Source of the DNA: Candidatus Falkowbacteria bacterium RIFOXYA2_FULL_38_12
GTDB taxonomy: Bacteria; Patescibacteriota; Patescibacteriia; XYB2-FULL-38-15
Length of the DNA: 64,000 nt
Assembly (NCBI GenBank): GCA_001778095.1
Contig: MFGA01000020.1
Coordinates: 75,805 to 139,804, forward strand
Direction: 5' to 3'
Positions 42,070-64,000 of the stretch are shown piece by piece. Below the pieces are notes generated by a model. That model worked only from the letters and a program-made list of their open reading frames with translations, did not search any database and was not told where the DNA came from. The first letter of the stretch is position 1; each line of letters opens with the position of its first letter. The position numbers were made by a program, and so were the translations under genes.

Positions 42070-43980
42070 ATGTTTAAAAAAAAGACAGCCTTAAAGTTTT
42101 TATTAGCCCTAGTTTTACTTGTGGGAGGTTTTTTGTTTGTCCAAAATGTTTTCGCTCAAGATATTGCCGGCATGGACATTGTGAACGAAAATATCGCTTT
42201 GTCCGCCGATGACCCAAGAATTATCGCCGCAAGGATTATTAGAATAGCTTTGGGATTTTTAGGAATAATAGCCGTCTGCATAGTCTTGTATGGAGGTTTT
42301 TTATGGATGACTTCAGCCGGCAATGAAGAAACTATTGGTAAGGCAAAAAAAGTTTTGATCAATGGATTGATCGGTTTGATCATAATTTTAATGGCTTTTG
42401 GCATTACCCAATTTGTTTTAAATTCTCTGCTTGGCAGGGTCGGGGGAGGAGCCGGCGGGGGAGGCGGGTCACCATTAATCGGGCGATATAGCGGAGCCTT
42501 GGGTAATGGAATTATTGAGAGTCATTATCCGCCACGCGGAGGGACGGGAATTCCACGTAATACAAAAATTATCGTGACATTCAAGGAAAAAATGTTACTT
42601 GAGTCTTTGGTTAACAATTATAATGATAACGGAACGCCGGACAATATTGCGGATGATGTGGTTACTAAAAATGACAATGGCACGCCCGGCAATCCAGCAG
42701 ATGATTGGATGGAAATCAATAGCGAGAATGTTAGAATCTTTAAATCAAGCGAAGGAGAACTTGGCACGGAGCGAGTCCCGAACTATTTATCATCAAGCCA
42801 GGTAAGGGTTTCCTTTACGGCTGATCTGAAAAATTTTGTTTTTGATCCGATTCCACTGCTTGGTAGTCCGACGGAAAATATTTGGTATACAACAGCCTTA
42901 AAGCCGGGCATAGAAAAATCAAACGGCGACAATGCTTTTGCCGGAGCTTTCCGTGACGGATATGCTTGGGATTTTGAAGTGAGCACGATTATTGACGTAA
43001 CTCCGCCACAAGTAGTCAGCGTTATTCCAAGAAAAGATTCTGTAAATCCGCGCAATATAAAAGTGCAAATAAATTTTAATGAAGCAATGGATCCGACAAC
43101 TGTTTCCGGAAGTACTTTTGGCGAGGAGGCTTTAAGATTTAATAATGTTTTAACCACTGATGCTCTTGATCGCGAGGTTGCCGGAACGTGGAGTATTGGT
43201 AATCAATATAAAACAATAGAATTTGTAACTAATGACAAGTGTGGGACAAATTCTTGTGGAGGCGATGTTTATTGTCTTCCGGGAGATGAAACAATCAGCG
43301 TTCTGGCCATTGCCGCAAGATTAGGGAGTAGTCCGCCGGAGGCCGAGATGCCTTATGACGGTATTGTTGATGTTTGCGGTAATTCTTTGGATGGAAATAG
43401 CAACGGCCGAGCCGAAGGACAGTCTCTGGAAGGGAGAAGCGCTATTGGTGGAGATAATTATTCATGGCTTTTTAAAACAAACGACACTATTGATTTAGTT
43501 CCGCCAACAATCAGCGCGGTTACTCCAATGCCGGAAACTGAAAGCGTGGCTTTCGCCGTTCCGGTAGAATTAACCTTTTCAAAATTAATGAGTATTACGA
43601 GTTTTACAACCAGCAATATTTCCTTTCAGGATAATCAACGCGATGAATGCGCGGTTTGGTTTTTTCTGGATGGCGACAATTTACAAGCGGACGGAGCTCC
43701 GGTTAGGGGATCTGATGATATCGCCATACGCACAAAAGCGAGAGTCAGTCATGAAAACTTATTGCCGACAGGTGGAGTTTGTTCTGACGATAGACCGGTA
43801 GAAGGACCGTTAGCAATGGATGGCGAGGGTTCATTGGTTTATTATTTTCCAGTTGCCAATTCGGATGTTCAAGATTTGTTTCAAAATTGTTTTTATAGAC
43901 CCATCGGACCGGCCGATGGTCAGACTTGCGTTGTTGGAAGAGATGGAAATTTGCCAGCTGACTGCGAGCCATGGAGATAA
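42070..43980 (+). CDS. secreted surface protein with VirB2/TrbC-pilin-like N-terminal anchor and Big_5-type Ig-like domains
   Basis: Signal peptide, then two hydrophobic helices separated by a short charged loop, then a poly-Gly linker. Repeated D.TPP.V....P........I...F.E.MDP.TV Ig-like modules. Confidence 0.6.
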   Translation: MFKKKTALKFLLALVLLVGGFLFVQNVFAQDIAGMDIVNENIALSADDPRIIAARIIRIALGFLGIIAVCIVLYGGFLWMTSAGNEETIGKAKKVLINGLIGLIIILMAFGITQFVLNSLLGRVGGGAGGGGGSPLIGRYSGALGNGIIESHYPPRGGTGIPRNTKIIVTFKEKMLLESLVNNYNDNGTPDNIADDVVTKNDNGTPGNPADDWMEINSENVRIFKSSEGELGTERVPNYLSSSQVRVSFTADLKNFVFDPIPLLGSPTENIWYTTALKPGIEKSNGDNAFAGAFRDGYAWDFEVSTIIDVTPPQVVSVIPRKDSVNPRNIKVQINFNEAMDPTTVSGSTFGEEALRFNNVLTTDALDREVAGTWSIGNQYKTIEFVTNDKCGTNSCGGDVYCLPGDETISVLAIAARLGSSPPEAEMPYDGIVDVCGNSLDGNSNGRAEGQSLEGRSAIGGDNYSWLFKTNDTIDLVPPTISAVTPMPETESVAFAVPVELTFSKLMSITSFTTSNISFQDNQRDECAVWFFLDGDNLQADGAPVRGSDDIAIRTKARVSHENLLPTGGVCSDDRPVEGPLAMDGEGSLVYYFPVANSDVQDLFQNCFYRPIGPADGQTCVVGRDGNLPADCEPWR

Positions 43981-44079: not shown

Positions 44080-47000
44080 TTGATGCTAAGCAAAAAGACA
44101 GCTCTAAAATTTACACTATCCCTCATCGTACTTATGGGAAGTCTTTTGTTTGTCCAAACGGTTTTTGCGCAAGATTTTGGGACTGATGTTGTCGGCGAAA
44201 ATATTGCTCTAGTGGATGCCGGTGATCCCAGAGTTGTCGCCGCAAGGATTATCAGAATAGCTTTGGGATTTTTGGGAATTATTGCTGTTTGCATAGTTTT
44301 GTATGGAGGCTTTTTATGGATGACTTCAGCCGGCAACGAAGAGACTCTTGGTAAGGCAAAAAAGGTTTTAACCAGCGGTTTGATCGGACTTATCATTATT
44401 TTAATGGCTTTTGGTATTACTCAATTTGTTTTGAGTAGATTGACAGAGGCAACAGGGGTTGATGGCGGAGGGGGTGGCGGAGGCGGCGGAGGGGGTGGCG
44501 GAGGCTTGCCTTCTGACGCTTTTTTAGTAAGAAGCATTCAGCCAAATGGCGCTATTCCCATTCGTAATGTCATTGTCAGAGTTCTTTTTAATAAAAACGT
44601 AAATGCAGATAGTCTAAGAGTGGCGGGAAATTTTGTAGTGCGTCGGGTTTCCGACAACACGCCAGTAGAAGGAATAATAAATCTAAATGGTAATCTTGCG
44701 GAATTTGTTCCCAATGCCGATTGTCCCGAACCAAATGCTGATAGAAAATGTTTTGATAGTGATACTGAATTTAGAGTGGAATTAGCTACTGGGATAAGAA
44801 GCGAGACTGGAAAGAGTTTGATGTGTGGAGGATTGGCTCCGTCTTGTCGTGGAACTTTCACAACTGGAAATTTGGTTGATGTTACCGGCCCCGAGGTTGA
44901 TGTTACTTTTCCTGATGATGGTCAGCCGGTGAGTGCCGACGCGATTATAAGTATTGAAGCGCATGCGATTGACGATGCGGGAATTTCTTATTTGGATTAT
45001 TTTGTTAATAACAACCTTTTGGGTCGGGACGCTCCGGAGGGGCCGACTGTTCGAGATTATTTTTCGGCTACCGATTGGGATACAACCGGAATAGCCTCGG
45101 GGACAAAATATAAATTAAAGGCCACAGCTTTTGATATTGATTCAAACAATACAAACTCAAACGGCGTAGGGGTGATTGTTAGAGCTGCGCATTGTTTTAA
45201 TGCGTTTAAAGATCTTGATGAGATCCAAGTTGATTGTGGCGGAGTTGATTGCGGTTTATGTGACGGCGGAGCTTGTGTTAATGATGATGAGTGTCGTAGT
45301 GGAATTTGTTTAAACGGAATTTGTCGGAGCTTGCCGGTTATCGCTAGGGTTGCTCCCAGCGATGGCGCAGTAGGAAATTTTATAACAATATTTGGCGAGC
45401 ATTTTGGCAATGTTCACGGTTCGGTTTATTTTCAGGATCACATCGAAGGCAATTTGCCGAGAGGTTGTGTAGTTGGAGACGTTTGGCAGGATAGACAAAT
45501 TATCGTTGAGGTCCCGGCAGGAGCATTGGACGGGCCGATTTCCGTTGTTATTCCTCCACCGGACGGAGCGCTAGCTTCAGACTATACGGACAGGACGAAT
45601 GATGAACGAGGTCCGTTGTTGCCTGATTTTGACGTGAATGAAATTGAACGTCCGGGAATTTGCGCAATTAATCCGAAAGAAGGAGAACCAAAAGCTGAAG
45701 TGAGGGTTTTGGGAACTCATTTTGGTGACCAGCAGGGAGACAGTTTGATTAATTTTGGAGGGACAAGAGCCGAAAGAATTTTGGATTGGGGAGAATCAAG
45801 TATTAGGGCAACAGTTCCCTTGATAGCCCCGGCGGTTGTTCCCGTTCAAGTAGTAAAAGATGAAGAAAATAGCAATCCTATTAATTTTACCGTTCTTCAA
45901 TCTGCCGCGACTCCAAAAATTTTAAGTTTCTCTCCGACAAAAGGGCCGGAAGGGGAATATATAACCATTTTAGGTTCAAGTTTCGGCGACACTCCCGGTA
46001 AAGTTGATTTTGTTGCGCCGGACGGAACAATTTATTTGGCGGCAACTGATTTTCCGGAGGTCTGCGGAGCTAATTGGTGGAAAGATGACGCAGTGATTAT
46101 TAAAATACCGAAAGAAGCAAGGATTATTCTTCCCGGGCCAAAATATACTTTAAAATTAACGGCAAATAGCGGCCTTGTTGATGATACTTCGGATTTAACA
46201 CCGGCAACTCTCGAAATTATTGGCGGGGCGCCAAAACCGGGAATTTGTCGTATTTTTCCGGACAACGGACCGGCTGGTCTTGAGGTTGCAATTGATGGGG
46301 AAAGATTGGGGTTGAGAGGAATTTTAAATTTTTGGAGAAATAAGGTTGCTCTAACAAATTCGTGGAAAGTGGATCAGGTTGTTGGAGTCGTGCCAGTCGG
46401 ATCAGAAACCGGGCCAATCAATGTTTCGGTCGGCGATAATTTAAGCAATAATGTAAATTTTAACGTTCGCGATTGTCGCGACGCGAGAACGCCATGCGGA
46501 GAAGGAGAAGAATGTTGTCGGGATGGATCATGTCGAGCGGATGGAGAATGCGCGGAAGCGCCGGGTAGCGGACATTATTTTTGGCGTTTTTCCACCGGTG
46601 AGCTACCAATAAATCCCAGAGTGGTGGAATATTGCGGTCCGGCTGATGAACCAAGAAGATTAAACCCGTCACCTTCACCTTGGAATAAAAGAGAAGGTGG
46701 AAACAATGTTTGCATTAATGCCAGGATCACGGCCAGATTTAATGTAAAAATGAACAATGAATCATTGACAACACATGGGAATATTGTTGTGGAAGAATGT
46801 GCCGGTCCTGACGCGGAAAATCCTTGTCTTGAAAAAAGAGTAGTTGAGGGAGAAATTAATCCTTTAGTTGTAAATGATGCTCTTTTACCAAGAGGAATTG
46901 GATCAGATTCATTTGAGTTTGTTTTGCCAGCGGGCATTCTATTTGAACAAAATAAAGTTTATCAAGTTACTTTAAAAGGTGGTTCATTTGAAGATCCCGG

Positions 47001-50000
47001 ACTTGCAAGTGTTGCCGGGTTGCTTTTAGACGGAGATAAAGACGGAGAAGAGGGTGGAGATTATATTTTTGAATTTAAAACAAGGAATACTGATGAGTTG
47101 TGCGAAATAGGTTCAATCGGAATCATGCCTCCAATCGCAACACTGACTGAACAATGGATAGAAGATGAAGAAATTGTCGGATCAGAATTGGAGTATACCG
47201 GTTTGTGCTATGCAGAGGGGGATATATGTTTAACTCTAAATTGTAGAAACTATGATTGGAGATGGAAATCATCTGACGATCCGTTAAATCCAAAGGTTTC
47301 ATTGCTGGAAGTGGAAGATGATGAAGGCGAAGTGATTGAAGAGAAGGCACTTGTCAGGGCAGTAGCGGAGACAGATATAAACCCCGCGACTGGTCTAAGT
47401 CAACCAGTAATAATAACTGGCGCGATCCCAGTTGAAAGAAAGTCTGGAGAGGGAGATTTAACTATTAGTTTTACAGATCCAAAAGTAATTGAAAAATGGC
47501 CTGATTGTCGAGAGGCCTGCAAGAATTCGGAAGTAGGCGTTAAATTTAATACATGGATGGATGAAGAAATTGCCGGCGATCCTCAAAATATAAAGTTATA
47601 TATCTGGCGTTGCGGTAATAGTGTTATTGATCATGGCGAAGATTGTGATGACGGAAATATTGTTTCCGGCGATGGTTGCAGTAGTAGTTGTCTAAATGAG
47701 GGAACAAAACTTTGTCTCGAATTTGATCCGGCCGTCAGAGAAGTATCGGTCGAGGATTCTTGTTGCGGAAATGGACGGCGCGATCCGGGCGAAGATTGCG
47801 ATGGTAATCCTTTTCCGGCGAATTGCCGAGTAGATGGATTGGCTGACAATTGTCTTAATGAAGGAACGGCTGTGATCGGCGACGGTGGAAGTTGTGGTAA
47901 TAGTATAGTTGAAGAAGGTGAAGATTGCGATCCGCCGGATCTTGCTTTGCCACCGGGAAGTCGTGGGTGTAGCGTGGAATGTTTGAATCAAGGGACTTCC
48001 GGACTATTTCCGGCGCCCGGAGGTATTGTCGGAGTTTTACCTCGATATTCTTCAGTAAGCCTAAGCGAAGGGAAATGGGAACACAAACTGAATTTTGATT
48101 TTCCTGTCGGTTTTTCTCTTCTTCCTAATACTTGGTATAGGGCGGTAGTTTCGGGAGCTCAAAAAAGCGTTAGCGGAGTTGCTCTCACGGAATTGAATTA
48201 TGACGATATACCTGACGAAAGACATTCTTTAGATTCATATTCTTGGGCGTTTAGAACCAAAAGCGATGATTCTTTATGCGCTGTTGATAAAATTGAAGTG
48301 AGCCCGAGGGAAGCGCGGGTTAGATTTATTGGAGCAAAAGTTGATTTTAGGTCAATGCCTTTTGGCGCGCCGGATGAATGTAGCCCTAATGGCCAGAAAT
48401 TGAGAGCGATGAGCTATCCTTGGGTTTGGAATTCAACAGTAGAGGAAGTGGGAACTCTTCCGGCTCCTCGTTCCGATAGATTCCCCGGTTGTGGCAATGG
48501 TGTTGTGGAATTTGGTGAAGATTGCGACGATGGAAATATACTTCCGGGTGATGGTTGCGCCGGGCCGGGAGATAACGCCTGCTTAAATGAGGGTGAGAGC
48601 GCGTGCGCCTTTGGAGAAGGTATGTGTATAGTAGATAAACGTTGTATTTGGAATGAAGCTGATGGAGGAAGATGTATTAAAAAAACTATCTGCGGAAATA
48701 GAGCAGTAGAGATAGGCGAAGATTGCGATGATGGAGATAGAGATTCGGGAGACGGATGCAATAATAAATGTTTGAATGAGGGGTCAGTCGCCGGAGGATC
48801 TGTCTGTGGAGATATGAAGATTGGTATTGGTGAAGACTGCGATGACGGAAATACTCGATCGGGAGATGGATGCAGTAATCTTTGTTTGAATGAAGGGACT
48901 ATTCTTGACAGAAGAATTGATCCTCTGCAAACAGTAACGGCAAAGGGGCTAAGAGTTGATCATGCTCGCGAGGACACTACGGCAATAAGCGCTGAAACAG
49001 ATGGAAAAAAAGGTGAGGGCAATTTTACTTTAGCTTGCAGTTATAATCTACCGGACAATCCTTGCCCGGAAGACGACGAAAGGGGTGATATTTATGGAAT
49101 TGGTAATAATTCTTGCTGTTATCCAAAGCCAATTATTGAAACCTGTAATCCGTCAGGCGCGGCTATTTGTTCCAATAAACCGGAAGGGGAAGCGGTTTGT
49201 CGCAATTCTTTAATCTCAATAACTTTTGATAAAGAAATGGATCCGGCCTCACTGGAAGAAAATATTATTGTCGCTGGCAATTATAATGTTTGCCCGGAAG
49301 GAACGATTGACGTTGGTAATGGCGATATCAGACTTCGTGAATTTATAAATTGGTGCGCGGTAACGGGAGGAATTACCGTTAGTCAAATTGTTCCGGAAGA
49401 AGGCGAAAAAAAGACAAGAGTTGATTTTAATTTATCCAAACTTTTGGATCCGAGCATAAAATATAAAGTTATTGTTCGCGGGAATAATTTATTGACTCGA
49501 GATAGAGTAGAGGGAGCAAGGAGTATTAACGGAGTGGAGCTGGGAGAGACTAATTTTACTTTTAGAGAAGGGGAGGCGAGTTATCAAAGCAGGAGCTGGA
49601 CTTTTTGGACAAACGATCAAATTTGCGCCCTGTCTTCAGTTAAAATAAATCCCGAAAGTCATCTTTTTACCAGCAGTTTGGATCCGGAAAATCGGGCTGA
49701 TTTTATAGCAACCGCCTTGGATGCAAGAAATAATCCTATTTCGTCAATTCCCGGATCTTATTCTTGGAGATGGGATTGGACTTCAAGTTATATTGACATA
49801 GCCGCTCTTTCTCTTTGCGCTGATCCAAACGGATGTAGCACAAGAACCGTGACGGCGCAAAATCAAAACGGAGAATCATTAATTTCCGCCAAAGCGACGA
49901 TAACAGCAGATGAAGAAGTCCCGGGCGCAAGAGGTCAAAGCAAGTTTGGCATTTCCAATGTCGCTGTTTTTCTTTGCGAAAATCCTTGGCCAACAGCGGC

Positions 50001-53000
50001 AACAATAAGAGAGGACGGAGGATATCTTGATCGTAATTATAATTTCAAATTTTACTATTGCCGAGACAAAGGGGAATTTTTGCCTGACGATGATCTACCC
50101 TGTTTTCCCTCGGCGGAAGTGGGCGGAGCGATTGCCGTAAGGGATACCGAGAGAATCGGCGTATTAAGAGAAGATGGTTTGTTGAGAGAATATTTATTTA
50201 CGTTTCCGGGAACATTTTATTGTAGTGTTTCACAAACTTTATGCGATCCTGCCGCCCTTCCTGACGCTCTGGGTTTCTGTCCTGCCGGAACCGGAGATTG
50301 CCGACCGGCCCCGGATGCCATTGGTATTAGAATTTACGAAAACGTTAATCATCTAACTCCGACCGAATGGTATGGAAAGCAAGGATTAGCTGTGGGAAGT
50401 CCGGAGACAATTAATATTGACGGCTATGAAGCAATACGAGATGGTCGGACAGTCTATATTTCGGCGGCCAATGACACGATGGGTCCGGACACTCTTTATA
50501 CAAATATTTATTTGGTCTCTTATAACGACGGAGCTAATTCGGATACAATAAATATCTATAATCAGATAATACAAAATTTAAAATTTAATACTAATTTGAG
50601 AAATGCGGATCTGCGGGCATGTCTTTACAGGGCTTGCAGTAATAATGCCAGCAAAAGTTGCAATATGGATGCAGACTGTCGCGCGGAGCCTGACGTTACT
50701 TCAACTTGTTTGCCTTTATCTTATTGCACTAAAGATATGGATTGTCCGCCGGCGGTTCCGGTTGCGGGAACAATTAACGAATGTCAAGCGCCAAAAGATA
50801 AATTAACCAGAGACATGAGGAGGATTATTGACCTTAATAATCTAAAAAGAGTAATAGATTCTTATAAAACTGTTCATGGAAGCTATCCAAAACTGGAAGC
50901 GGGAACTTATATCAGATCATTGGTCTCCAGCGTTTGGGGTTCTTGGATCGGGGCGTTGGGCAAAGACTTAGGCGCATCATTACCCGTTGATCCGATCAAC
51001 AAAATTGTTAATTGCGAGGGGGCGGGTTTTGATAAGGAAACATGTTGGAATCTAGAATCAAAAACGTATCAATGTCCGGCCGGTTCGCATGTTTATCAAT
51101 ATAAAGTGAACGGAGACGGGACATATAAATTAAAGAGTGATTTTGAGTATAGGGCAAACGATCGCCTCGTTGATCTAAAAACGCTATGGGTAGGAAATTT
51201 ATCTAATGTGTTTGAAATACAAGGATCTTGCGATGGCGCTCCCATAAGAAGCACCGGCGTTTGCGGAGATGGAAATATAGACGGTCCCGAGGAATGCGAG
51301 CCGAGAGCTAATCCCCCGCGAGACAGGGCGTGTACACTTGAGATTGATGGAGAAGAAGTGGCTGGCAGACAAAGAGAAGAGTGTAACCCAGCTGACTGCA
51401 CTTGGCGCGAGCTAGGTGGCTGTTCGGTTCTCTGTGGGGATGGCATTCGCCAAGTGGGTGAAGAATGTGACGAAGGGCCTCTGGGCGGACGAATAGCTGG
51501 TGGAGGAATGTCTCCGGAAAATCAGTATTTTTGTACTAGAGAATGTGAAATGATGGGAGGTTATTGTGGTGATGGAGGAGAACCACAGGTAGCTTATGGA
51601 GAAAGATGCGATAATGGAGTTTCTTGCACGTTAAGGTTGCCTTGTGCAAGTGTGGATGGATGTGTCTGTGGATCTTGTATAGTTCCTAGGGGAAAGAAAA
51701 GCTGTGGAAATGGATCTTACGGATTGAGCGTTAGTGGAGAACCTTGGTGCAAAACAGATTGTTCGGGCTTCGGTCCATATTGCGGAGATGAGGTTGTAAA
51801 TGGAGCTGAACAATGTGATGGAGATTCTATTACTTCAAAAGGAATTTGTGTTCCAGAAGGAATACCAGAACTAAACGATGTGGATACGGTTCTTGGAAGT
51901 TATACCTCATGTAACAACAATGAAGATTGTTCGGACGGTACTTGTGTTATTTGTGATAATTCTAGAGAAGGTTATTCTCAATCAAGAACGAAAAACTGTG
52001 GAGAGTTGGGGGTACCAGGGTTAGCTCTTCTATGTGACTGGAATAGATGGGGCGCTTGCGAGACGGCAGGTACTTGCGGAAATGGGACAAAAGAAGGGGA
52101 CGAGGAATGTGATGATGGAAATGAAAATAATAATGATGGTTGTATTATCACCTTGGAAAATTCTCCATCGGGTCCTGATAATTGCAAACTAGCTCGTTGT
52201 GGAGATGGATTTACTAAGATTGGTGCAGAAGCCTGTGACGTCGGCGTAGGCAATGGCAGGATTTGCAGGGCAAACTATGGTGAAAATTGTAATTATTGCG
52301 ATGTTAATTGCGCTATAAAAGTTATTACCGGACCTCGTTGCGGAGATGGAATAATAAATGGAAGAGAGACATGCGATGATCGAGCGGGAACTAGTTTGTT
52401 ATATAAAATAATTGAGGAACAAAAATATTTTGCTGATAATCGTGGCGATAGTTTAGGAGTAGTTGTTCCCGTGAGTATGGATTCGGCCTGCTCAATAGAC
52501 AGCGCTCTTCCGGGCATAGATGGTTCCTGCCCGGGGCAACCGCCAACAGGAGCACTGAAATTTAATCGGGCGGTTTGTTCAGCGGATTGCGCTTCAACTT
52601 GTCCCCCGGCTTATAAAATACAAACATTAACCTTTGGTCCGGAAGGACGAAGTTCAATTGAATTAGGAAGTAACGAGGAGGTCTCAGTTAATCTTCCCGC
52701 TTGTCGTGTTTTGGGTGACATTAAAGTTGATGTTGATTTGAGTAATGTTACTCAAACTCCGTTGAATGTGGTTTTTGTGACGGATAGATCGGGGAGTATG
52801 GGGTGGGGAACAACATCAAGTTCTGGACCAAATCTTTCTTGCAGTGAAGACAGAACGAGGATGGGTTGTGCTAGAGATGCGCTTACGGAAGCAATAAATT
52901 TATTATTTGATAGTTATGAAAATATTCGCATTGGCTTGGTAAGTTATGGTAATAATGTCCCGGTTGGTGCATGGCATGACTTGCTGGGTTTTTTAGGGAA

Positions 53001-53658
53001 AGACATATTAATTTCCGCAGTTGGTTCCTATACTCCGACTTTAGGTGCTACTAACATTTCCGCTGGGGTAAAGAAGGCAAAAGATATATTAAACAATGAA
53101 GATGGTAAAAAAATAATTGTTTTAATGAGTGATGGAGAAGCGACGAGACCTCATGAAACCCCAGCGCTAAGAGCAGTTTATCCTGCTTGTGATAGATATA
53201 GTAGAGACGATTTTGCCGCATGCGTTGCAGGAGAAGAGGTTAGATTGGCTAAAGGTAGAGATATAGAAATTTACACAATTTTATTTTATGGTCCCACATC
53301 CGCAGAAGCTAATATGGAGAGTTGGGCAAGTTCTCCCACGGAGCCTTACGCTAACATAAGCGCTCCCGATAATGACTTGGATGAAATTTATCGTTCTATT
53401 ATAGCCTCTCTAACATCCTCAAGTATAAATTTAAATTTACAAGAAACCGGAGGTGTGCGAGGGGGTGCAGAGATACCTCTTTTAAGAAGTATCTTTTGTA
53501 AGGAAGAAGAACAAACAGATATTCCCTTTAGTATAGATTTTGGCGGGATAGGCAAGGCGCGTGTAAGTAATCTAAAAGCTTATATATGCCCTGGCCCGCC
53601 GTATCCACCCGAAGATCTTTGGGAATGTGTCGGAGACTCTTGCGATGTGAGTCTATAG
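44080..53658 (+). CDS. giant (3192 aa) cell-surface protein: pilin-like N-terminal anchor, poly-Gly linker, IPT/TIG and Ig-like domains, ~12 cysteine-rich (GEDCDDGN...GDGC) repeats, embedded pseudopilin-like segment, C-terminal vWA domain
   Basis: N-terminal 125 aa ~85-90% identical to the 42070 protein. Four IPT-like modules (ITIFGEHFG, VRVLGTHFG, ITILGSSFG, VAIDGERLG). Repeats CGN..GEDCDDGN...GDGC..C of the Myxococcus-type cysteine-rich repeat. vWA MIDAS VVFVTDRSGSM and IIVLMSDGEAT. Confidence 0.7.
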   Translation: MMLSKKTALKFTLSLIVLMGSLLFVQTVFAQDFGTDVVGENIALVDAGDPRVVAARIIRIALGFLGIIAVCIVLYGGFLWMTSAGNEETLGKAKKVLTSGLIGLIIILMAFGITQFVLSRLTEATGVDGGGGGGGGGGGGGGLPSDAFLVRSIQPNGAIPIRNVIVRVLFNKNVNADSLRVAGNFVVRRVSDNTPVEGIINLNGNLAEFVPNADCPEPNADRKCFDSDTEFRVELATGIRSETGKSLMCGGLAPSCRGTFTTGNLVDVTGPEVDVTFPDDGQPVSADAIISIEAHAIDDAGISYLDYFVNNNLLGRDAPEGPTVRDYFSATDWDTTGIASGTKYKLKATAFDIDSNNTNSNGVGVIVRAAHCFNAFKDLDEIQVDCGGVDCGLCDGGACVNDDECRSGICLNGICRSLPVIARVAPSDGAVGNFITIFGEHFGNVHGSVYFQDHIEGNLPRGCVVGDVWQDRQIIVEVPAGALDGPISVVIPPPDGALASDYTDRTNDERGPLLPDFDVNEIERPGICAINPKEGEPKAEVRVLGTHFGDQQGDSLINFGGTRAERILDWGESSIRATVPLIAPAVVPVQVVKDEENSNPINFTVLQSAATPKILSFSPTKGPEGEYITILGSSFGDTPGKVDFVAPDGTIYLAATDFPEVCGANWWKDDAVIIKIPKEARIILPGPKYTLKLTANSGLVDDTSDLTPATLEIIGGAPKPGICRIFPDNGPAGLEVAIDGERLGLRGILNFWRNKVALTNSWKVDQVVGVVPVGSETGPINVSVGDNLSNNVNFNVRDCRDARTPCGEGEECCRDGSCRADGECAEAPGSGHYFWRFSTGELPINPRVVEYCGPADEPRRLNPSPSPWNKREGGNNVCINARITARFNVKMNNESLTTHGNIVVEECAGPDAENPCLEKRVVEGEINPLVVNDALLPRGIGSDSFEFVLPAGILFEQNKVYQVTLKGGSFEDPGLASVAGLLLDGDKDGEEGGDYIFEFKTRNTDELCEIGSIGIMPPIATLTEQWIEDEEIVGSELEYTGLCYAEGDICLTLNCRNYDWRWKSSDDPLNPKVSLLEVEDDEGEVIEEKALVRAVAETDINPATGLSQPVIITGAIPVERKSGEGDLTISFTDPKVIEKWPDCREACKNSEVGVKFNTWMDEEIAGDPQNIKLYIWRCGNSVIDHGEDCDDGNIVSGDGCSSSCLNEGTKLCLEFDPAVREVSVEDSCCGNGRRDPGEDCDGNPFPANCRVDGLADNCLNEGTAVIGDGGSCGNSIVEEGEDCDPPDLALPPGSRGCSVECLNQGTSGLFPAPGGIVGVLPRYSSVSLSEGKWEHKLNFDFPVGFSLLPNTWYRAVVSGAQKSVSGVALTELNYDDIPDERHSLDSYSWAFRTKSDDSLCAVDKIEVSPREARVRFIGAKVDFRSMPFGAPDECSPNGQKLRAMSYPWVWNSTVEEVGTLPAPRSDRFPGCGNGVVEFGEDCDDGNILPGDGCAGPGDNACLNEGESACAFGEGMCIVDKRCIWNEADGGRCIKKTICGNRAVEIGEDCDDGDRDSGDGCNNKCLNEGSVAGGSVCGDMKIGIGEDCDDGNTRSGDGCSNLCLNEGTILDRRIDPLQTVTAKGLRVDHAREDTTAISAETDGKKGEGNFTLACSYNLPDNPCPEDDERGDIYGIGNNSCCYPKPIIETCNPSGAAICSNKPEGEAVCRNSLISITFDKEMDPASLEENIIVAGNYNVCPEGTIDVGNGDIRLREFINWCAVTGGITVSQIVPEEGEKKTRVDFNLSKLLDPSIKYKVIVRGNNLLTRDRVEGARSINGVELGETNFTFREGEASYQSRSWTFWTNDQICALSSVKINPESHLFTSSLDPENRADFIATALDARNNPISSIPGSYSWRWDWTSSYIDIAALSLCADPNGCSTRTVTAQNQNGESLISAKATITADEEVPGARGQSKFGISNVAVFLCENPWPTAATIREDGGYLDRNYNFKFYYCRDKGEFLPDDDLPCFPSAEVGGAIAVRDTERIGVLREDGLLREYLFTFPGTFYCSVSQTLCDPAALPDALGFCPAGTGDCRPAPDAIGIRIYENVNHLTPTEWYGKQGLAVGSPETINIDGYEAIRDGRTVYISAANDTMGPDTLYTNIYLVSYNDGANSDTINIYNQIIQNLKFNTNLRNADLRACLYRACSNNASKSCNMDADCRAEPDVTSTCLPLSYCTKDMDCPPAVPVAGTINECQAPKDKLTRDMRRIIDLNNLKRVIDSYKTVHGSYPKLEAGTYIRSLVSSVWGSWIGALGKDLGASLPVDPINKIVNCEGAGFDKETCWNLESKTYQCPAGSHVYQYKVNGDGTYKLKSDFEYRANDRLVDLKTLWVGNLSNVFEIQGSCDGAPIRSTGVCGDGNIDGPEECEPRANPPRDRACTLEIDGEEVAGRQREECNPADCTWRELGGCSVLCGDGIRQVGEECDEGPLGGRIAGGGMSPENQYFCTRECEMMGGYCGDGGEPQVAYGERCDNGVSCTLRLPCASVDGCVCGSCIVPRGKKSCGNGSYGLSVSGEPWCKTDCSGFGPYCGDEVVNGAEQCDGDSITSKGICVPEGIPELNDVDTVLGSYTSCNNNEDCSDGTCVICDNSREGYSQSRTKNCGELGVPGLALLCDWNRWGACETAGTCGNGTKEGDEECDDGNENNNDGCIITLENSPSGPDNCKLARCGDGFTKIGAEACDVGVGNGRICRANYGENCNYCDVNCAIKVITGPRCGDGIINGRETCDDRAGTSLLYKIIEEQKYFADNRGDSLGVVVPVSMDSACSIDSALPGIDGSCPGQPPTGALKFNRAVCSADCASTCPPAYKIQTLTFGPEGRSSIELGSNEEVSVNLPACRVLGDIKVDVDLSNVTQTPLNVVFVTDRSGSMGWGTTSSSGPNLSCSEDRTRMGCARDALTEAINLLFDSYENIRIGLVSYGNNVPVGAWHDLLGFLGKDILISAVGSYTPTLGATNISAGVKKAKDILNNEDGKKIIVLMSDGEATRPHETPALRAVYPACDRYSRDDFAACVAGEEVRLAKGRDIEIYTILFYGPTSAEANMESWASSPTEPYANISAPDNDLDEIYRSIIASLTSSSINLNLQETGGVRGGAEIPLLRSIFCKEEEQTDIPFSIDFGGIGKARVSNLKAYICPGPPYPPEDLWECVGDSCDVSL
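44464..44505 (+). repeat. perfect 21-bp tandem duplication encoding a poly-Gly linker
   Basis: ggcggagggggtggcggaggc x2, inside the giant gene (15-residue Gly run). Confidence 0.8.
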
Positions 53659-58876: not shown

Positions 58877-60106
58877 ATGCCAGAAATAAAACCAGAGATT
58901 GAAACGTTTGCCAAGATTAAAGTGATTGGCGTTGGTGGAGCGGGAGGATCGGCGATAAACAGGATGGTAAAGTCAAAAATCAAAGGAGTTGAATTTATAG
59001 TTGCCAATACTGATGTTCAGGCGCTTCATTATTCAGAAGCCCCGGTCAGGTTGCATGTAGGAAAAACGGTAACTAGGGGGTTGGGGGCAGGGATGGATCC
59101 GGAGATTGGTAAAAAGGCGGCCGAAGAAAGCCAAAATGAAATCAGAGACATTTTAAAGGGAGCAGACATGGTTTTTGTTACTTGCGGATTGGGTGGAGGA
59201 ACGGGAACAGGCGCTGCGCCGATTATTGCCCAAATCGCTCGGGATTTGGGAGCGTTAACGGTTGGAGTGGTTACCAGACCATTTGCTTTCGAAGGGGCAC
59301 AGAGGCGAATCAACGCAGATAGAGGATTGGAAGAAATGGAAGGGAAAGTAGATACTCTGATTACTATACCCAATGACAGATTACTTCAGATAATTGATAA
59401 AAAAACCACTCTGCTTGATGCTTTTACAACATGCGATGAGGTATTAAAAAGTGGTGTCCAAGGTATTTCGGAATTAATTACCATACCCGGGTTGATCAAC
59501 GTTGATTTTGCCGACGTTAAGGCGATCATGAAAGACGCCGGATCGGCGATGATGGGCTTGGGCGAGGCAAGTGGTGAAAAACGAGGCGAGGAAGCAGCTA
59601 AAATAGCCATATCAAGCCCATTACTTGAACAATCAATAGAAGGAGCCAGGGGTATACTTTTTACTGTTACTGGCGGGCCGGGATTGGGAATGCATGAAGT
59701 GGCTGAAGCGGCGAAAATTATCACTGGATCAGCGGATCCGGACGCAAAAGTTATTTTCGGAGCTGTCATTAATGAAAACATGAAGGATGCGATAAGGATA
59801 ACAGTTATTGCTACCGGATTTAATGACAGAAAAAAAGCGGTAAGCGATGTGGAAAGTCCGGCTCGTCGCAGTTTTAACCCCAACCCTTTAGTTTCCGATA
59901 AACGTAAAGAGATAGATTGGAGTTCGTCCGGACAATTTCAAAAAAGACCGGTGAAAAAGATAGCTCATTTTGGAGATACGGAAGACAGTGGAATGGAAAT
60001 GGATGACAGTAATAAAAATCAGAATATAAAAAAGGCGATTGATGAAAAAGGAGGAGAGGGAGAGGATTTGGATATCCCCGCTTTTCTAAGAAAAAAAATA
60101 ATGTAA
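58877..60106 (+). CDS. ftsZ: cell division protein FtsZ
   Basis: Tubulin signature GGGTGTG. N-terminal [11 protein letters not shown]7 loop NVDFAD. Confidence 0.95.
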
Positions 60107-60254
60107 AAATTGAAACTATTTAATGTTAAAATAGCAAGATAATAAGACAGTAAGAGATGTTTACTCAATAGGGCGGAGGAAATAAGGTTTTGAAAATTAA
60201 AAGTTGGGTAATCTGTTGTTTTTATGTTATCTTGTATTTTATTCTCTAAATTTT

Positions 60255-62312
60255 ATGATGTACAGTCAAAATCAAATCAGTCAGATTAAAAAAAGGGATG
60301 GCCGGATTGTTGATTTTGACCAAAATAAAATTATCATAGCAGTTCAAAAGGCGATGGAAGCGGTGGGGGAAAAAGATCCGAAAAAAATACAAAAAATTTC
60401 CGATCAAATTGCCAAGGCTTTAAATAACAAATTTCATTATCGATCCATTCCGGCGATTGAAGAACTGCAAGATATTGTTGAAGAAGTTTTGATAAGATCA
60501 AAACAAATAAAAGCGGCCAAAGCTTATATTTTGTACAGAGATCAACATTCAAAAATTCGCGAATTGAAAGCGTTAGTTGATTCAAATCAGATAATGGGCG
60601 ATTATCTTGATAAACTAGATTGGTTGGTAAAAGAAAACAGCAACATGGCCTATTCTTTGCAGGGCCTGAATAACCATATCAGTTCGGCAATCAGTTCTCA
60701 TTATTGGTTAAATAAAGTTTATCCTCCGGAAATAAGAGATGTTTTTTTGGATGGCGATATTCATATTCACGATATGCAAATTTTAGCGGCATATTGTTGC
60801 GGTTGGGATTTGCAAGATTTATTGGTTAGGGGATTTGGCGGAGTTTCCGGAAAAATAGAATCAAAACCGCCGAATCATTTAAGAACCGCTTTGGGACAAA
60901 TTGTTAACTTTTTCTATACTCTCCAGGGAGAAGTTGCTGGAGCCGAAGCTTTTGCGGATTTTGATACCTACATGGCTCCTTTTATTCGTTATGATAAATT
61001 GAGCTATAAAGACGTTAAACAAGCAATTCAAGAATTTGTTTTTAATCTTAACGTTCCCACCCGTGTCGGTTTTCAAACGCCATTTACCAATATTACAATG
61101 GATTTGAATCCGCCGAGCACAATGGCCGAGGAATCGGTTATTATTGGGGGAAAACCTCAAAAAGAAAAGTATAAAGATTTTCAGCCGGAGATGGATATGA
61201 TCAATAGGGCATTTGCCGAAGTGATGCTTGAGGGTGATGCCAAGGGAAGAGTTTTTTCTTTTCCGATTCCGACCTATAATATCACGCCGGATTTTGAATG
61301 GGACAAAAAGGAACTGGATCCGGTTTGGGAGATGACCGCCAAGTATGGCATTCCTTATTTTGCCAATTTTGTTAATTCCGATATGAAAGCCGAAGACGCG
61401 CGCTCCATGTGTTGCCGATTAAGGCTTGATAATCGCGAGTTAAGAAAAAGAGGCGGAGGATTATTTGGGGCAAATCCATTGACAGGATCAATTGGGGTCG
61501 TAACAATAAACATGCCGAGAATCGGTTATCTCTCCAAAACAAGAACGGAATTTTTTGAAAGACTGGCCAAACTGATGGATTTATCAAGGAAAAGCTTGGA
61601 GATAAAAAGAGAAATCATAGAGAGCCTGACGGATAAAGGACTTTATCCATATTGTCGGCATTATCTCGCTCCGATAAAAGCCAGATTTAATGAATACTGG
61701 AGAAATCATTTTAATACAATCGGATTAATTGGAATGAATGAGGCGTGTCTTAATTTTTTAGGGAAAGACATTACCACGGAAGGTGGGCATGACTTTGCCA
61801 AATCAGTACTTGATTTCATGAGAGAAAGATTAATGGACTATCAGCTTGAAACAAATAATCTTTATAACTTGGAAGCTACTCCGGCTGAAGGGACGTGTTA
61901 TAGCTTGATTAAAAAAGACAAGGCAAAATATCCCGATATTATTTCGGCCAACGAAAAAGCTGTCAAAGAAAACGGGGCTGTTCCGTATTATACAAATTCA
62001 TCTCATCTGCCCGTTGATTTCACTAATGATTTTATAGAAGCGTTAAAGTTGCAAGACGACCTACAAACAAGGTATACTGGAGGTACAGTACTGCACGGTT
62101 TTATTGGAGAACGTTTGCCGTCGGGAGACGCAGCTAAGAAGTTAGTCAGAAAAGTTGCTGAAAATTTTAAATTGCCCTATTTTTCTCTTACGCCAACGTT
62201 CAGCGTTTGTCCAAAACACGGTTATTTATCCGGGGAGCATAAATTTTGCCCGTCGTGCGACGAAGAAATTGGGTACAAAAGTGAAATAGCTGATAAGCAA
62301 GAAAGCAGTTAG
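60255..62312 (+). CDS. nrdD: anaerobic ribonucleoside-triphosphate reductase NrdD, large fragment (ATP-cone, catalytic barrel, Zn ribbon); lacks the glycyl-radical motif
   Basis: N-terminal ATP-cone (ISQIKKRDGRIVDFD...). Conserved class III RNR core. C-terminal CPKHGY...CPSC Zn site, then a stop with no RVxGY glycyl-radical loop. Start chosen at MMYSQ rather than the upstream ATG at 60204. Confidence 0.8.
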   Translation: MMYSQNQISQIKKRDGRIVDFDQNKIIIAVQKAMEAVGEKDPKKIQKISDQIAKALNNKFHYRSIPAIEELQDIVEEVLIRSKQIKAAKAYILYRDQHSKIRELKALVDSNQIMGDYLDKLDWLVKENSNMAYSLQGLNNHISSAISSHYWLNKVYPPEIRDVFLDGDIHIHDMQILAAYCCGWDLQDLLVRGFGGVSGKIESKPPNHLRTALGQIVNFFYTLQGEVAGAEAFADFDTYMAPFIRYDKLSYKDVKQAIQEFVFNLNVPTRVGFQTPFTNITMDLNPPSTMAEESVIIGGKPQKEKYKDFQPEMDMINRAFAEVMLEGDAKGRVFSFPIPTYNITPDFEWDKKELDPVWEMTAKYGIPYFANFVNSDMKAEDARSMCCRLRLDNRELRKRGGGLFGANPLTGSIGVVTINMPRIGYLSKTRTEFFERLAKLMDLSRKSLEIKREIIESLTDKGLYPYCRHYLAPIKARFNEYWRNHFNTIGLIGMNEACLNFLGKDITTEGGHDFAKSVLDFMRERLMDYQLETNNLYNLEATPAEGTCYSLIKKDKAKYPDIISANEKAVKENGAVPYYTNSSHLPVDFTNDFIEALKLQDDLQTRYTGGTVLHGFIGERLPSGDAAKKLVRKVAENFKLPYFSLTPTFSVCPKHGYLSGEHKFCPSCDEEIGYKSEIADKQESS

Positions 62313-62318
62313 CAGGTT

Positions 62319-62341
62319 CTCTCCTTTTTAAAAAGGGAGAG
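62319..62341. terminator. perfect palindromic hairpin between the nrdD fragments (possible terminator/insertion scar)
   Basis: CTCTCCTTTTT/AAAAAGGGAGAG, 7 nt after the nrdD stop. No T-run follows. Confidence 0.4.
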
Positions 62342-62391
62342 CTAGAGAGGGATTTCGAATTTAGAGTTTATTAATAATTATATAAAAAAAT

Positions 62392-62538
62392 ATGGAGGAA
62401 AAAGAAACAAAAAGACAACCATGTGAGGTCTACTCACGAGTGGTGGGCTACTTACGACCAACAAGCCAGTGGAACGACGGGAAAAGGGCGGAATTTGACG
62501 TTAGGCAGGCTTACAACAAGCAATTGCAAGAGGAATAG
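62392..62538 (+). CDS. 48-aa ORF encoding the NrdD glycyl-radical domain as a separate peptide
   Basis: MEEKETKRQPCEVYSRVVGYLRPTSQWNDGKRAEFDVRQAY contains the class III RNR glycyl-radical motif (SR[VI].GY followed by WN.GK..E). Has its own ATG, 80 nt downstream of the nrdD stop. Confidence 0.55.
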   Translation: MEEKETKRQPCEVYSRVVGYLRPTSQWNDGKRAEFDVRQAYNKQLQEE

Positions 62539-62608
62539 AAGGAAAAACATAAGAACATGGGAGCATGGTAACATTTTGTGTTACCATGTTTCATATTAAG
62601 ATAATATT

Positions 62609-63361
62609 ATGCTTCTTGGCGGTTTGCAAAAACTAACTTTAATTGATTATCCGGGTAAAGTCGCCTGTACTGTTTTTACAGTCGGCTGTAATTTTCGTTG
62701 TCCATTTTGTCATAACCCCGAATTGGTAACGCAAAGACGCGAAAATGACCGCAAAGACGCAAAAGAAAAAGAAGGAGTAGTAGATTTTAGTCTGCGCCCA
62801 ATGATTAGCGAAGAGCTTTTTTTTAATTTTTTATCAGAAAGGAAAGGAATTCTTGATGGAGTTTGTGTGACGGGCGGAGAGCCGACCGTTCACGCTGATC
62901 TGGAAATTTTTTTGCGAAAAATAAAAGAAATGGGATTTTTAGTAAAACTGGATACTAATGGAACAAATCCGGAAATTTTGAAAAAACTGCTTGATGAAAA
63001 ATTGCTTGATTATATCGCAATGGACTTAAAAAATAATTTCAAATCTAATTATGCCAAAACGGCTGGTGTAGAAGTCAACATAGAAGATATTAAGAAGAGC
63101 GTGGAAATAATAAGAAACAGTGGGGTTGATTATGAATTTAGAACAACAGTTGTTCCCGGTTTGCACACAAAAGAAGACCTTTTGGCAATAGCGGATGAAA
63201 TTAAGGGAGCGAAAAAATATTATTTACAGCAATTTAAACACGAGCAAAAAATGTTGAATCCGGATTTTAGAGAGGTGACGCCTTATGGTAAAGATTTTTT
63301 GGAAGATATTAGGGAAAAAATAAAAGATTATTTTGAGGTTTGTGAGGTGAGGGGAGAGTGA
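62609..63361 (+). CDS. nrdG: anaerobic ribonucleoside-triphosphate reductase activating protein (radical SAM)
   Basis: CNFRCPFCHNPE (CxxxCxxC), GGEPT motif. Adjacent to nrdD. Confidence 0.8.
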   Translation: MLLGGLQKLTLIDYPGKVACTVFTVGCNFRCPFCHNPELVTQRRENDRKDAKEKEGVVDFSLRPMISEELFFNFLSERKGILDGVCVTGGEPTVHADLEIFLRKIKEMGFLVKLDTNGTNPEILKKLLDEKLLDYIAMDLKNNFKSNYAKTAGVEVNIEDIKKSVEIIRNSGVDYEFRTTVVPGLHTKEDLLAIADEIKGAKKYYLQQFKHEQKMLNPDFREVTPYGKDFLEDIREKIKDYFEVCEVRGE

Positions 63362-63517
63362 TATTTTTTTGCATACTTTTTTAAAATTTGCTTTTTGATA
63401 ATAAGGAAAAATAAGTTTTTTTATTTTTTACATAGGGGCAATAAGGTGTTTTTTCTGCTCGTGGAATTGCATAAAAAATTATTTTTATTTTAAGCCAAAT
63501 TACGCTATAATATAGAT

Positions 63518-64000
63518 ATGAATGAAATCGCCAAAAAACGCAATTTAGGCCAATTTTTCACTACCAATTCCGACCAAATTCTGCAAGGGTTTAGTGAATT
63601 TGTCGTAAACAAAGAAGTTATAGACCCCTTTGCCGGCAATCAGGATTTGTTGAACTGGTCAAGAGATAACAAATGTAAAAAAGCCACAGGGTTTGATTGT
63701 GACAAAAATTATATAGATGGTAAAAACGTTTTTCTAAACGATTCTATAAACTCGCCTAAAGATTATAAATTTGTCTGCACTAATCCGCCTTATCTGCATA
63801 AGAATAAGGCATCTGGCGAAATAAAGGGAAAATTTTTTTTCGGAATAAACTCAAGCTTTGAGGATTTGTATCAGATTTCCATTTTTTCCATCTTAAATTG
63901 TGAGGAGGGTATAATTATAGTTCCTTTGAATTTTTTATGTGCGGAAAATTCAAAAAAAATCAGAGAATTATTTTTTGCACAATTTGAAATTATAAAATTA
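63518..64000 (+). CDS. N6-adenine DNA methyltransferase, N-terminal part (3' end beyond window)
   Basis: Motif I-like IDPFAGNQDL and catalytic TNPPY (NPPY) motif. Preceded by TATAAT at 63506-63511. ORF still open at the window end. Confidence 0.55.
   Translation, partial: MNEIAKKRNLGQFFTTNSDQILQGFSEFVVNKEVIDPFAGNQDLLNWSRDNKCKKATGFDCDKNYIDGKNVFLNDSINSPKDYKFVCTNPPYLHKNKASGEIKGKFFFGINSSFEDLYQISIFSILNCEEGIIIVPLNFLCAENSKKIRELFFAQFEIIKL

Follow-up and report, generated by a model that had tools for sequence, protein, structure and literature searches.

How can a class III ribonucleotide reductase (RNR) work when its catalytic open reading frame (ORF) stops short of the glycyl-radical loop, and where has the loop gone? 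The question is raised by the nrdD locus in a 64,000-nt stretch (hereafter the window, to which positions refer) of contig MFGA01000020.1 from Candidatus Falkowbacteria bacterium RIFOXYA2_FULL_38_12. A first-pass annotation, made from the letters of the window, had described an NrdD ORF without the loop, followed by a separate ATG-initiated ORF of 48 amino acids (aa) encoding the glycyl-radical segment of NrdD, and had proposed that the radical domain is either delivered in trans or cut off by an insertion of about 80 nt. Both observations held when the two ORFs were compared with protein families, and delivery in trans from a separate ORF is the option that all of the comparative evidence supports. 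We consider it very probable, from the comparison of sequences described below, that the locus is a naturally split, conserved two-gene class III RNR in which the 48-aa radical peptide acts in trans.

The glycyl-radical loop is encoded by a separate ORF

The large ORF encodes 702 aa when counted from its first TTG (60204..62312, TAG stop), and on identical contigs gene callers place its start at ATG 60255 or 60258, giving 685 or 684 aa (features are collected in Table 1). It matched Pfam ATP-cone and PF13597 (NRDD), with an E value of 5.5e-181 over profile positions 1-531 of 562, and the NCBIfam model NF006126 with 1048 bits (cut-off 548) over positions 3-655 of 684, indicating that it holds the NRDD catalytic domain, the ten-stranded alpha/beta barrel of class III RNRs. 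The best 36 Protein Data Bank matches to a structure model of the large chain were all class III RNRs. Both Cys of the sequence RSMCCRLRLD were invariant across 34 aligned homologues and are assigned to the finger loop by homology only. An RVxGY-type glycyl-radical motif was absent from the large ORF, which thus does not carry the radical site on the same chain as the barrel, as NrdD does. Because the large chain alone passes the NCBI equivalog cut-off, its missing radical loop is hidden by annotation.

The missing loop was found in the next ORF. Its 48-aa product matched NRDD positions 531-562 of 562 (E 9e-10), the only Pfam match at E <= 1, and positions 649-683 of 684 of NF006126, NrdD models being the sole NCBIfam matches; membership in the glycyl-radical family of the pyruvate formate-lyase (PFL) type was accordingly not found in Pfam at E <= 1 or in NCBIfam. 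The predicted radical site is Gly19 (codon 62446..62448), and the conserved core comprises the last 32 NRDD profile positions, making the product a small stand-alone glycyl-radical domain of the kind known from GrcA/YfiD. The small ORF is in the +1 frame relative to nrdD and has an in-frame TAA three codons before its ATG. The exact 48-aa peptide has no listed NCBI source in the protein collection searched, and the large chain has NCBI and UniRef sources.

Since the large ORF covers profile positions 1-531 and the peptide 531-562, the two pieces meet without loss or duplication. A complementary split was also seen on alignment with the one-piece NrdD of T. maritima (4COI). The large ORF aligned to residues 101-609, its predicted Zn ribbon CPKH...CPSC lying on C..H...CPVC, which ends at residue 609, and peptide residues 11-42 aligned to residues 613-645, with Gly19 on the glycine of RIVGY. 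Only three residues lie between the two aligned segments in T. maritima NrdD, and it is in this short linker, past the Zn ribbon and ahead of the Gly loop, that the chain is broken. The motif of the small ORF is thus homologous to the loop of an intact NrdD, and by alignment the peptide is the exact segment that forms the C-terminal glycyl-radical finger of the one-piece enzyme.

The large ORF had been described as ending right after its Zn ribbon. It does not, as 17 residues (DEEIGYKSEIADKQESS) follow CPSC before the stop, and the first of them belong to a tail motif of split large chains. In these chains the ribbon is closed by the consensus C-D-x-E-[IML]-G-[YF], whose Asp and Gly were invariant in 120/120 close large-chain homologues; across 37 split loci, 36 had the Asp and 28 the Gly. 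No D-x-E-[IML]-G-[YF] motif was found in the 30 intact relatives. It came to notice because a MAFFT alignment with intact homologues had matched the tail IGY to the true VVGY of the intact proteins, a mis-registration. The tail motif may dock the peptide or the activase, or may be a leftover of a former Gly loop.

An activase gene, nrdG, lies nearby, and its product scored 216 bits against NCBIfam TIGR02495 (NrdG2; cut-off 131). An activase-like ORF was likewise present in all 37 of the split loci.

The split is conserved and the peptide is under selection

At least 20 independently assembled contigs (JGI, ENA and Logan) carry the identical peptide in the same gene order, and Candidatus Falkowbacteria RIFOXYB2_FULL_38_15 has a protein 100% identical to the large chain. 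The best 120 peptide matches were all stand-alone proteins of 43-67 aa that share 11 invariant residues (R..C...SR..GY......WN..K..E...R). The best 120 large-chain matches (66-100% identity, 676-720 aa) all ended soon after the Zn ribbon, and none had RVxGY. In the peptide core, four synonymous differences and one non-synonymous difference separate the window from its nearest relative; compared with more distant relatives, the proportion of non-synonymous differences (pN) was 0.14-0.29 and synonymous sites were saturated. The ratio dN/dS over all pairs is noisy because of this saturation and the shortness of the ORF, and its qualitative result alone was used: judged by these substitutions, the peptide is under purifying selection. 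Furthermore, a profile search of a 50%-identity library (1.84 billion cluster representatives) gave 4,983 matches, of which 149 of the best 150 were 48-115 aa long. Of the 147 among these 150 that were not already in the set of 120 peptide matches, 137 begin with Met.

Split and intact enzymes among relatives

For a species survey, one genome was taken per species, which gave 80 loci with an NrdD at 61-69% identity, and the Gly loop was located with a hidden Markov model of the peptide core. As many as 36 of the 80 species-level loci were split like the window, with a small ORF of 38-86 aa that has no Zn ribbon, so the same split does occur in related genomes. A split with Zn ribbon was seen at seven loci, where a loop-less large chain is followed by an 84-102-aa ORF with its own CxxC...CxxC ribbon and Gly loop. 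Four loci hold an intact NrdD followed by a module consisting of Zn ribbon and Gly loop, 30 are intact (e.g. Syntrophomonas zehnderi OL-4, Smithella, Bathyarchaeia), and three, cut off by a contig edge, were uninformative. Counting both forms, the gene is split at 43/77 informative species loci, and no informative locus lacked a Gly loop, which lay in cis or on a small ORF directly downstream.

The split type was found in many Patescibacteria, in DPANN archaea (Micrarchaeota, Woesearchaeota, Pacearchaeota and Nanoarchaeota-type) and in single Acetothermia and Bacillota genomes. The split explains the truncated look of many nrdD genes of DPANN archaea and of the Candidate Phyla Radiation (CPR), whose large chain annotation calls a complete enzyme. 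Many records of metagenome-assembled genomes with CPR-type loci (L007, L009, L013 and others) bear the title 'uncultured Gammaproteobacteria bacterium', and one is titled Planctomycetota; as such labels are probably mistaken or mere placeholders, titles alone were not used for taxonomy.

In a rough neighbour-joining tree of the large chains, the architecture states were scattered. The shared DxE[IML]G[YF] tail points to a single old fission for the tail-bearing split type, which would then have spread vertically and horizontally among CPR and DPANN lineages. A second route is visible in the sequences of Parcubacteria, leading from an intact enzyme to an intact enzyme plus a stand-alone module and then to decay of the cis loop. 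In the Parcubacteria/Moranbacteria clade, intact, intact-plus-module and module-only genomes are interleaved, and module-only large chains keep decayed cis loops, e.g. CPKCVIEQKTEVFLKVGEEEL as against the intact CPKCVIEQKTEVYSRVVGYIRP. These remnants record a loss of the cis loop that followed the gain of a trans module.

Further observations were made on the modules and large chains of this set. At the four intact-plus-module loci (L036, L045, L061 and L064, all Parcubacteria), an 86-88-aa ORF with Zn ribbon and Gly loop lies about 40-80 nt past nrdD; its loop is nearly identical to the cis loop, which makes the module a candidate for a genuine spare part of class III RNR. Decayed Gly-loop remnants stand at the C-termini of the large ORFs of L039, L040, L055 and others, e.g. 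TEVFLKVGEEEL as against TEVYSRVVGYIRP. In one relative (L091:1-2840), the large nrdD ORF (1455 aa) is broken by intein and LAGLIDADG homing-endonuclease domains, and the 51-aa radical peptide is still separate. A Cys pair (CxC, CC or CxxC) stands at the very C-terminus of 15 of the 120 peptides, and such a pair is also found in the modules of L018, L036, L040, L045, L061, L064 and L074, being absent from the cis tails of the same genomes. These terminal pairs recall the redox-shuttle C-terminal tails of class I and class II RNRs.

Viruses carry the module alone

The module was also found in viruses. In 68/80 matching IMG/VR loci (L092-L171; e.g. L109:2977-3120 and L116:2698-3138), a stand-alone NrdD-type Gly module was present and the locus had no NrdD large chain upstream of it; in 65, neither strand of the locus showed one. 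Some of these viral modules are 42-76 aa long without a Zn ribbon, others 75-113 aa with one, and their neighbours are phage genes for the head-tail adaptor, tail terminator, tail tube and tape measure. The archaeal virus ANMV-1 has a 144-aa orphan coding sequence annotated as anaerobic RNR beside its prohead protease (KP703175.1 25525-25959; L172:2686-3120). A phage would benefit from the module alone if the module can enter the large chain of the host, and these orphans parallel Y06I of phage T4, the phage-borne part for PFL. The pattern suggests that the viral orphan modules are a new, previously unnoticed phage auxiliary gene. A separate radical tip of about 48 residues, as recognised by homology, is thus encoded in this groundwater bacterium and in many tiny-celled bacteria and archaea, and some phages encode it too.

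The gap between the ORFs is variable and its hairpin is young

In the window, 79 nt separate the large ORF from the small one. The closest relative (L087, 96-98% identity) has a gap of 32 nt, lacks the hairpin that follows the stop codon in the window, and has a large chain nine codons shorter at its end. Measured against this relative, some 50 nt of the spacer form a young indel that takes in the hairpin; the split itself is much older. A recent insertion of about 80 nt as the cause of the split is contradicted by its conservation across hundreds of lineages with variable gaps and frames. The hairpin is also not the perfect palindrome that it had been taken for: it contains a 1-nt bulge and folds like shuffled sequence (z = -0.06). 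We rejected it both as a part of a mechanism and as a repeated mobile palindrome, as it occurs once within the window, has shuffle-level stability and is absent in L087.

Among split loci the spacing of the large and small ORFs varied between an overlap of 20 nt and a gap of 811 nt, in all three relative frames, a variety in which no common recoding or splicing signal could be conserved. The small ORF starts with ATG in all split loci but two. In the window it is preceded by an A-rich leader, TATAAAAAAAT-ATG, and the absence of a Shine-Dalgarno site there is normal for this genome, in which such sites stand before only 3/37 long ORFs. In lineages that do use them, a clear GGAGG Shine-Dalgarno site precedes the small ORF, as in L048, L049, L058, L065, L074 and L083, which include several DPANN, Bacillota and Acetothermia loci. 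Variable gaps and frames together with separate start codons argue that two polypeptides are made.

A second hairpin, with a U-rich stretch, lies between the small ORF and nrdG. It is stable (dG -20.1 kcal/mol, z = -4.61), none of 200 shuffled sequences folding as well, and it is kept in L087, L089 and L090 with one compensatory change from G:C to A:U and G:U wobbles. A simple terminator scan found no terminator between the genes and did not list this hairpin, which is probably a terminator or a 3'-end stabiliser of the transcript of the large and small nrdD ORFs. From its conservation before nrdG, the large and small ORFs seem to be expressed as one unit, apart from the activase, which acts catalytically. 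Short AACATG-like repeats lie just 5' of this hairpin.

How the two chains might work, and what else could explain them

In glycyl-radical enzymes, the radical domain swings out of the barrel for activation and back in for catalysis. For the two-chain enzyme we propose that the two ORFs would be co-transcribed and each translated from its own start codon, and that NrdG with S-adenosylmethionine would take the H atom from Gly19 of the peptide, whether free or docked. The peptide would then insert non-covalently in the barrel and place the glycyl radical opposite the finger-loop Cys, with nucleotide reduction proceeding as in canonical NrdD. As the large chain itself lacks a loop, the peptide would be an obligate subunit in this genome and not a spare of the GrcA type. 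The action of NrdG on a free peptide is plausible by analogy, since the activase of PFL can install the radical on YfiD (PMC13450708, PMC8683613). O2 cleaves glycyl-radical proteins at the radical glycine (PMC13450708); in the two-chain enzyme such damage would cost only the 5.6-kDa peptide, and the 79-kDa catalytic chain could be re-armed with a fresh one. We therefore put forward, tentatively, that the peptide is an exchangeable radical cartridge, which is charged by NrdG, plugs into the loop-less NrdD and is replaced after O2 cleavage, and that phages bring their own to boost or re-arm the synthesis of deoxynucleoside triphosphates in the host.

Several points weigh against the two-chain enzyme or its exchangeable peptide. 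Support for the making of two chains, their assembly and their activity comes from sequence only. With AlphaFold2, the large and small chains fused without an alignment gave a pLDDT (predicted local distance difference test) of 33.6; the head-to-tail fusion with an unpaired alignment reached a mean pLDDT of 74.5 with a good barrel, but the junction and Gly loop (673-706) stayed below 50, so that docking is taken from homology only. The median length of the activase was 238 aa at split loci and 232 aa at intact loci, and by this similarity co-adaptation of the activase was not detected. Another RNR or an intact nrdD could lie elsewhere in the genome, since the scan that returned no other RNR covered long ORFs of the 64-kb window apart from one of 3192 aa. 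Finally, the sequences would look the same had the gene undergone a neutral fission within a flexible linker.

That last point is the core of the rival account that stands up best, namely that the same two-chain enzyme is present but the split is a neutral accident of streamlining, with the peptide bound for the life of the complex and never exchanged. We regard this as a serious though tentative possibility. It fits a break in so short a linker, which in T. maritima NrdD spans only three residues, and the unchanged length of the activase. It also fits the lineages concerned, CPR and DPANN, whose genomes are small and known to contain split genes, fission being common in reduced genomes. It does not readily account for the origin of stand-alone modules by at least two routes, for their coexistence with intact enzymes in four genomes, for phages that carry modules alone, or for the conserved new tail motif on split large chains. 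Coexistence with an intact enzyme and lone phage modules make sense only if a free module can enter a pre-existing large chain.

A pure spare part is very unlikely. Here the 48-aa protein would repair, like GrcA, an intact NrdD encoded elsewhere, and the adjacent loop-less ORF would not be its usual partner. The four Parcubacteria loci with an intact NrdD and a stand-alone Gly module and the orphan modules of phages are what this account would predict, and the RNR scan, confined to the long ORFs of the window, leaves the rest of the genome to hold such an enzyme. However, in 36/36 genomes with this type of split, what directly precedes the small ORF is a loop-less large chain, and the locus also contains an activase-like ORF; the large chain is highly conserved, including its active-site Cys and Zn ribbon, which would be unexpected if it never bore a radical; among the scanned long ORFs of the window there was, moreover, no other RNR to repair.

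Still less credit can be given to a rejoining of the two ORFs into one chain, whether by ribosomal bypass, by a frameshift with readthrough, by splicing a tiny intron out of the RNA or by trans-splicing of the proteins. A hairpin stands directly past the stop codon, as in T4 gene 60, and phage nrdD introns exist, the nrdD of Jug phages being in four pieces that are mostly spliced (PMC12880540). But the hairpin has ordinary stability and is missing from the relative with 96-98% identity, and neither gap lengths nor frames are conserved. The small ORFs have their own starts, some with Shine-Dalgarno sites, and in the window an in-frame stop and an ATG precede the small ORF, so that a bypass of the T4 gene 60 type does not apply. 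A scan of 59900..64000 against Rfam at E <= 10 returned only eukaryotic RNA families at chance level, with the spacer empty and no intron family, and 79 nt (32 nt in L087) is too short for a group I or group II intron. At 17 and 10 residues, the flanking tails are not long enough for split-intein halves, and the phage orphan copies have no partner ORF to join.

A sequencing or assembly error or a decaying pseudogene, which a stop codon and a frame change within a normally single gene and a young indel at the junction might bring to mind, has a negligible chance in view of the identical structure on the independent contigs, a split common to the best 120 homologues and to 43 of the 77 informative species loci, the invariant residues and purifying selection of the peptide, and the conserved split-specific tail of the large chain. 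The first-pass annotation had likewise ranked error, pseudogene and bypassing lower, a ranking that agrees with the conservation across hundreds of lineages and the variable gaps and frames, both of which contradict these options.

Relation to known systems

Reviews of 2021 and June 2026 know spare-part radical proteins only for formate lyases and leave other glycyl-radical enzymes open (PMC13450708, PMC8683613). Neither a split NrdD nor an autonomous radical protein of the NrdD type is described in the literature searched, where subscription journals were thinly covered, and the novelty for class III RNR suggested in the first-pass annotation stands within that literature. The same annotation had drawn an analogy with GrcA/YfiD, which holds for a stand-alone radical protein acting in trans and fails for its role, since the peptide here would be an obligate subunit of a large chain without its own loop.

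The peptide shares with GrcA/YfiD of E. coli and Y06I of phage T4 the form of a small stand-alone protein with a glycyl-radical loop, presumed activation by the radical-SAM activase of the parent enzyme, and insertion in trans; phage-borne versions are known for both systems. GrcA, which we take to be homologous to the C-terminus of PFL (Pfam PF01228), backs up an intact PFL after O2 cleavage, whereas the peptide matches the NrdD family only and its large chain is loop-less. The coexistence with a loop-bearing parent that characterises GrcA was not found in the window and is seen, at the sequence level, in L036, L045, L061 and L064. At about 14 kDa, YfiD is far larger than the 48-aa peptide (PMC8683613), and its N-terminal region is disordered (PMC13450708), whereas the extension of the peptide before the conserved core is about seven residues.

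With the one-piece NrdD and NrdG of phage T4, E. coli, T. maritima, P. copri and S. thermophilus, the locus shares the same domains in the same order (ATP-cone, barrel, Cys finger loop, Zn ribbon and RVVGY Gly loop) and an adjacent nrdG, and identity with intact enzymes such as the one from Syntrophomonas zehnderi is 60-67%. It differs from them in the break of the chain between the Zn ribbon and the Gly loop and in the novel DxE[IML]G[YF] tail on the large chain. Among split RNRs, the nrdA gene of the class I enzyme of Aeromonas phage Aeh1 is split by the homing endonuclease gene mobE, and a functional large subunit is formed from two separately translated pieces. There a mobile endonuclease gene lies in the catalytic core, whereas here a short ORF-free gap isolates only the radical loop.

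The split class II RNR NrdJa/NrdJb of Pseudomonas aeruginosa and relatives is similar in having two adjacent ORFs and two polypeptides with the C-terminal module on the second (PMC4520616, PMC9669993). These enzymes use B12, however, NrdJb is large and folded, with IscU-like and Zn-finger domains (PMC9669993), and the radical source is not split off. Fragmented nrdD genes are also found in Jug jumbo phages, where the junction between pieces of 230 aa and 91 aa gave no evidence of RNA splicing and the other junctions are spliced introns (PMC12880540). This unspliced junction, likened here by description only, may be a protein-level split near the C-terminus; its authors do not read it as a trans radical domain.

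If the peptide is indeed an exchangeable cartridge, it would be the first trans or spare-part radical system outside pyruvate formate-lyase and the first with an obligatory trans mode, and it would let an expensive catalytic chain survive oxic episodes. The loci bear on the spare-part question for class III RNR in three forms: an intact enzyme plus a module, a module with a decayed cis loop, and the minimal 48-aa peptide. A synthesisable peptide, a socket protein and an activase would, furthermore, make a simple system for studying radical installation, docking and repair.

Features of the locus and its surroundings

Table 1. Features of the split nrdD locus and the adjoining activase gene, in window positions
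Feature	Position	Strand	Evidence and remarks
nrdD large chain	60255..62312	+	ATP-cone, catalytic barrel, predicted finger-loop Cys pair RSMCC and Zn ribbon; no glycyl-radical loop
Zn-ribbon segment CPKH-x9-CPSC (Cys, His, Cys, Cys)	62208..62258	+	On the large chain; read from sequence
Tail motif D-E-E-I-G-Y	62259..62276	+	Directly after the last Zn ligand; specific to split large chains
Imperfect hairpin, 12 bp with a 1-nt bulge	62315..62343	+	Just 3' of the TAG stop; lineage-specific indel
nrdD small chain, 48-aa stand-alone glycyl-radical peptide RQPCEVYSRVVGYLRPTSQWNDGKRAEF...	62392..62538	+	NRDD profile match; own ATG
Stable hairpin and U-rich stretch	62560..62592	+	Between the small ORF and nrdG; fold and alignment
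nrdG, radical-SAM activase, 250 aa, cluster motif CNFRCPFCHN	62609..63361	+	Pfam Radical_SAM and Fer4_12

The genes ftsA and ftsZ lie upstream of the nrdD locus on the + strand of the window. Elsewhere in the window, two tandem paralogues of cofactor-independent phosphoglycerate mutase (iPGM_N and Metalloenzyme domains) occupy 7038..8585 and 8705..10279. The 3192-aa ORF lies at 44080..53658, preceded by a neighbour (42070..43980) with a bacterial Ig-like domain. Directly past nrdG, from 63519 (L001:5127-7324), there are restriction-modification-like genes with weak matches to the Eco57I and DpnII/Tsp45I families. These genes are absent in the 96-98% identical L087, where a trypsin-like protease comes directly after nrdG.

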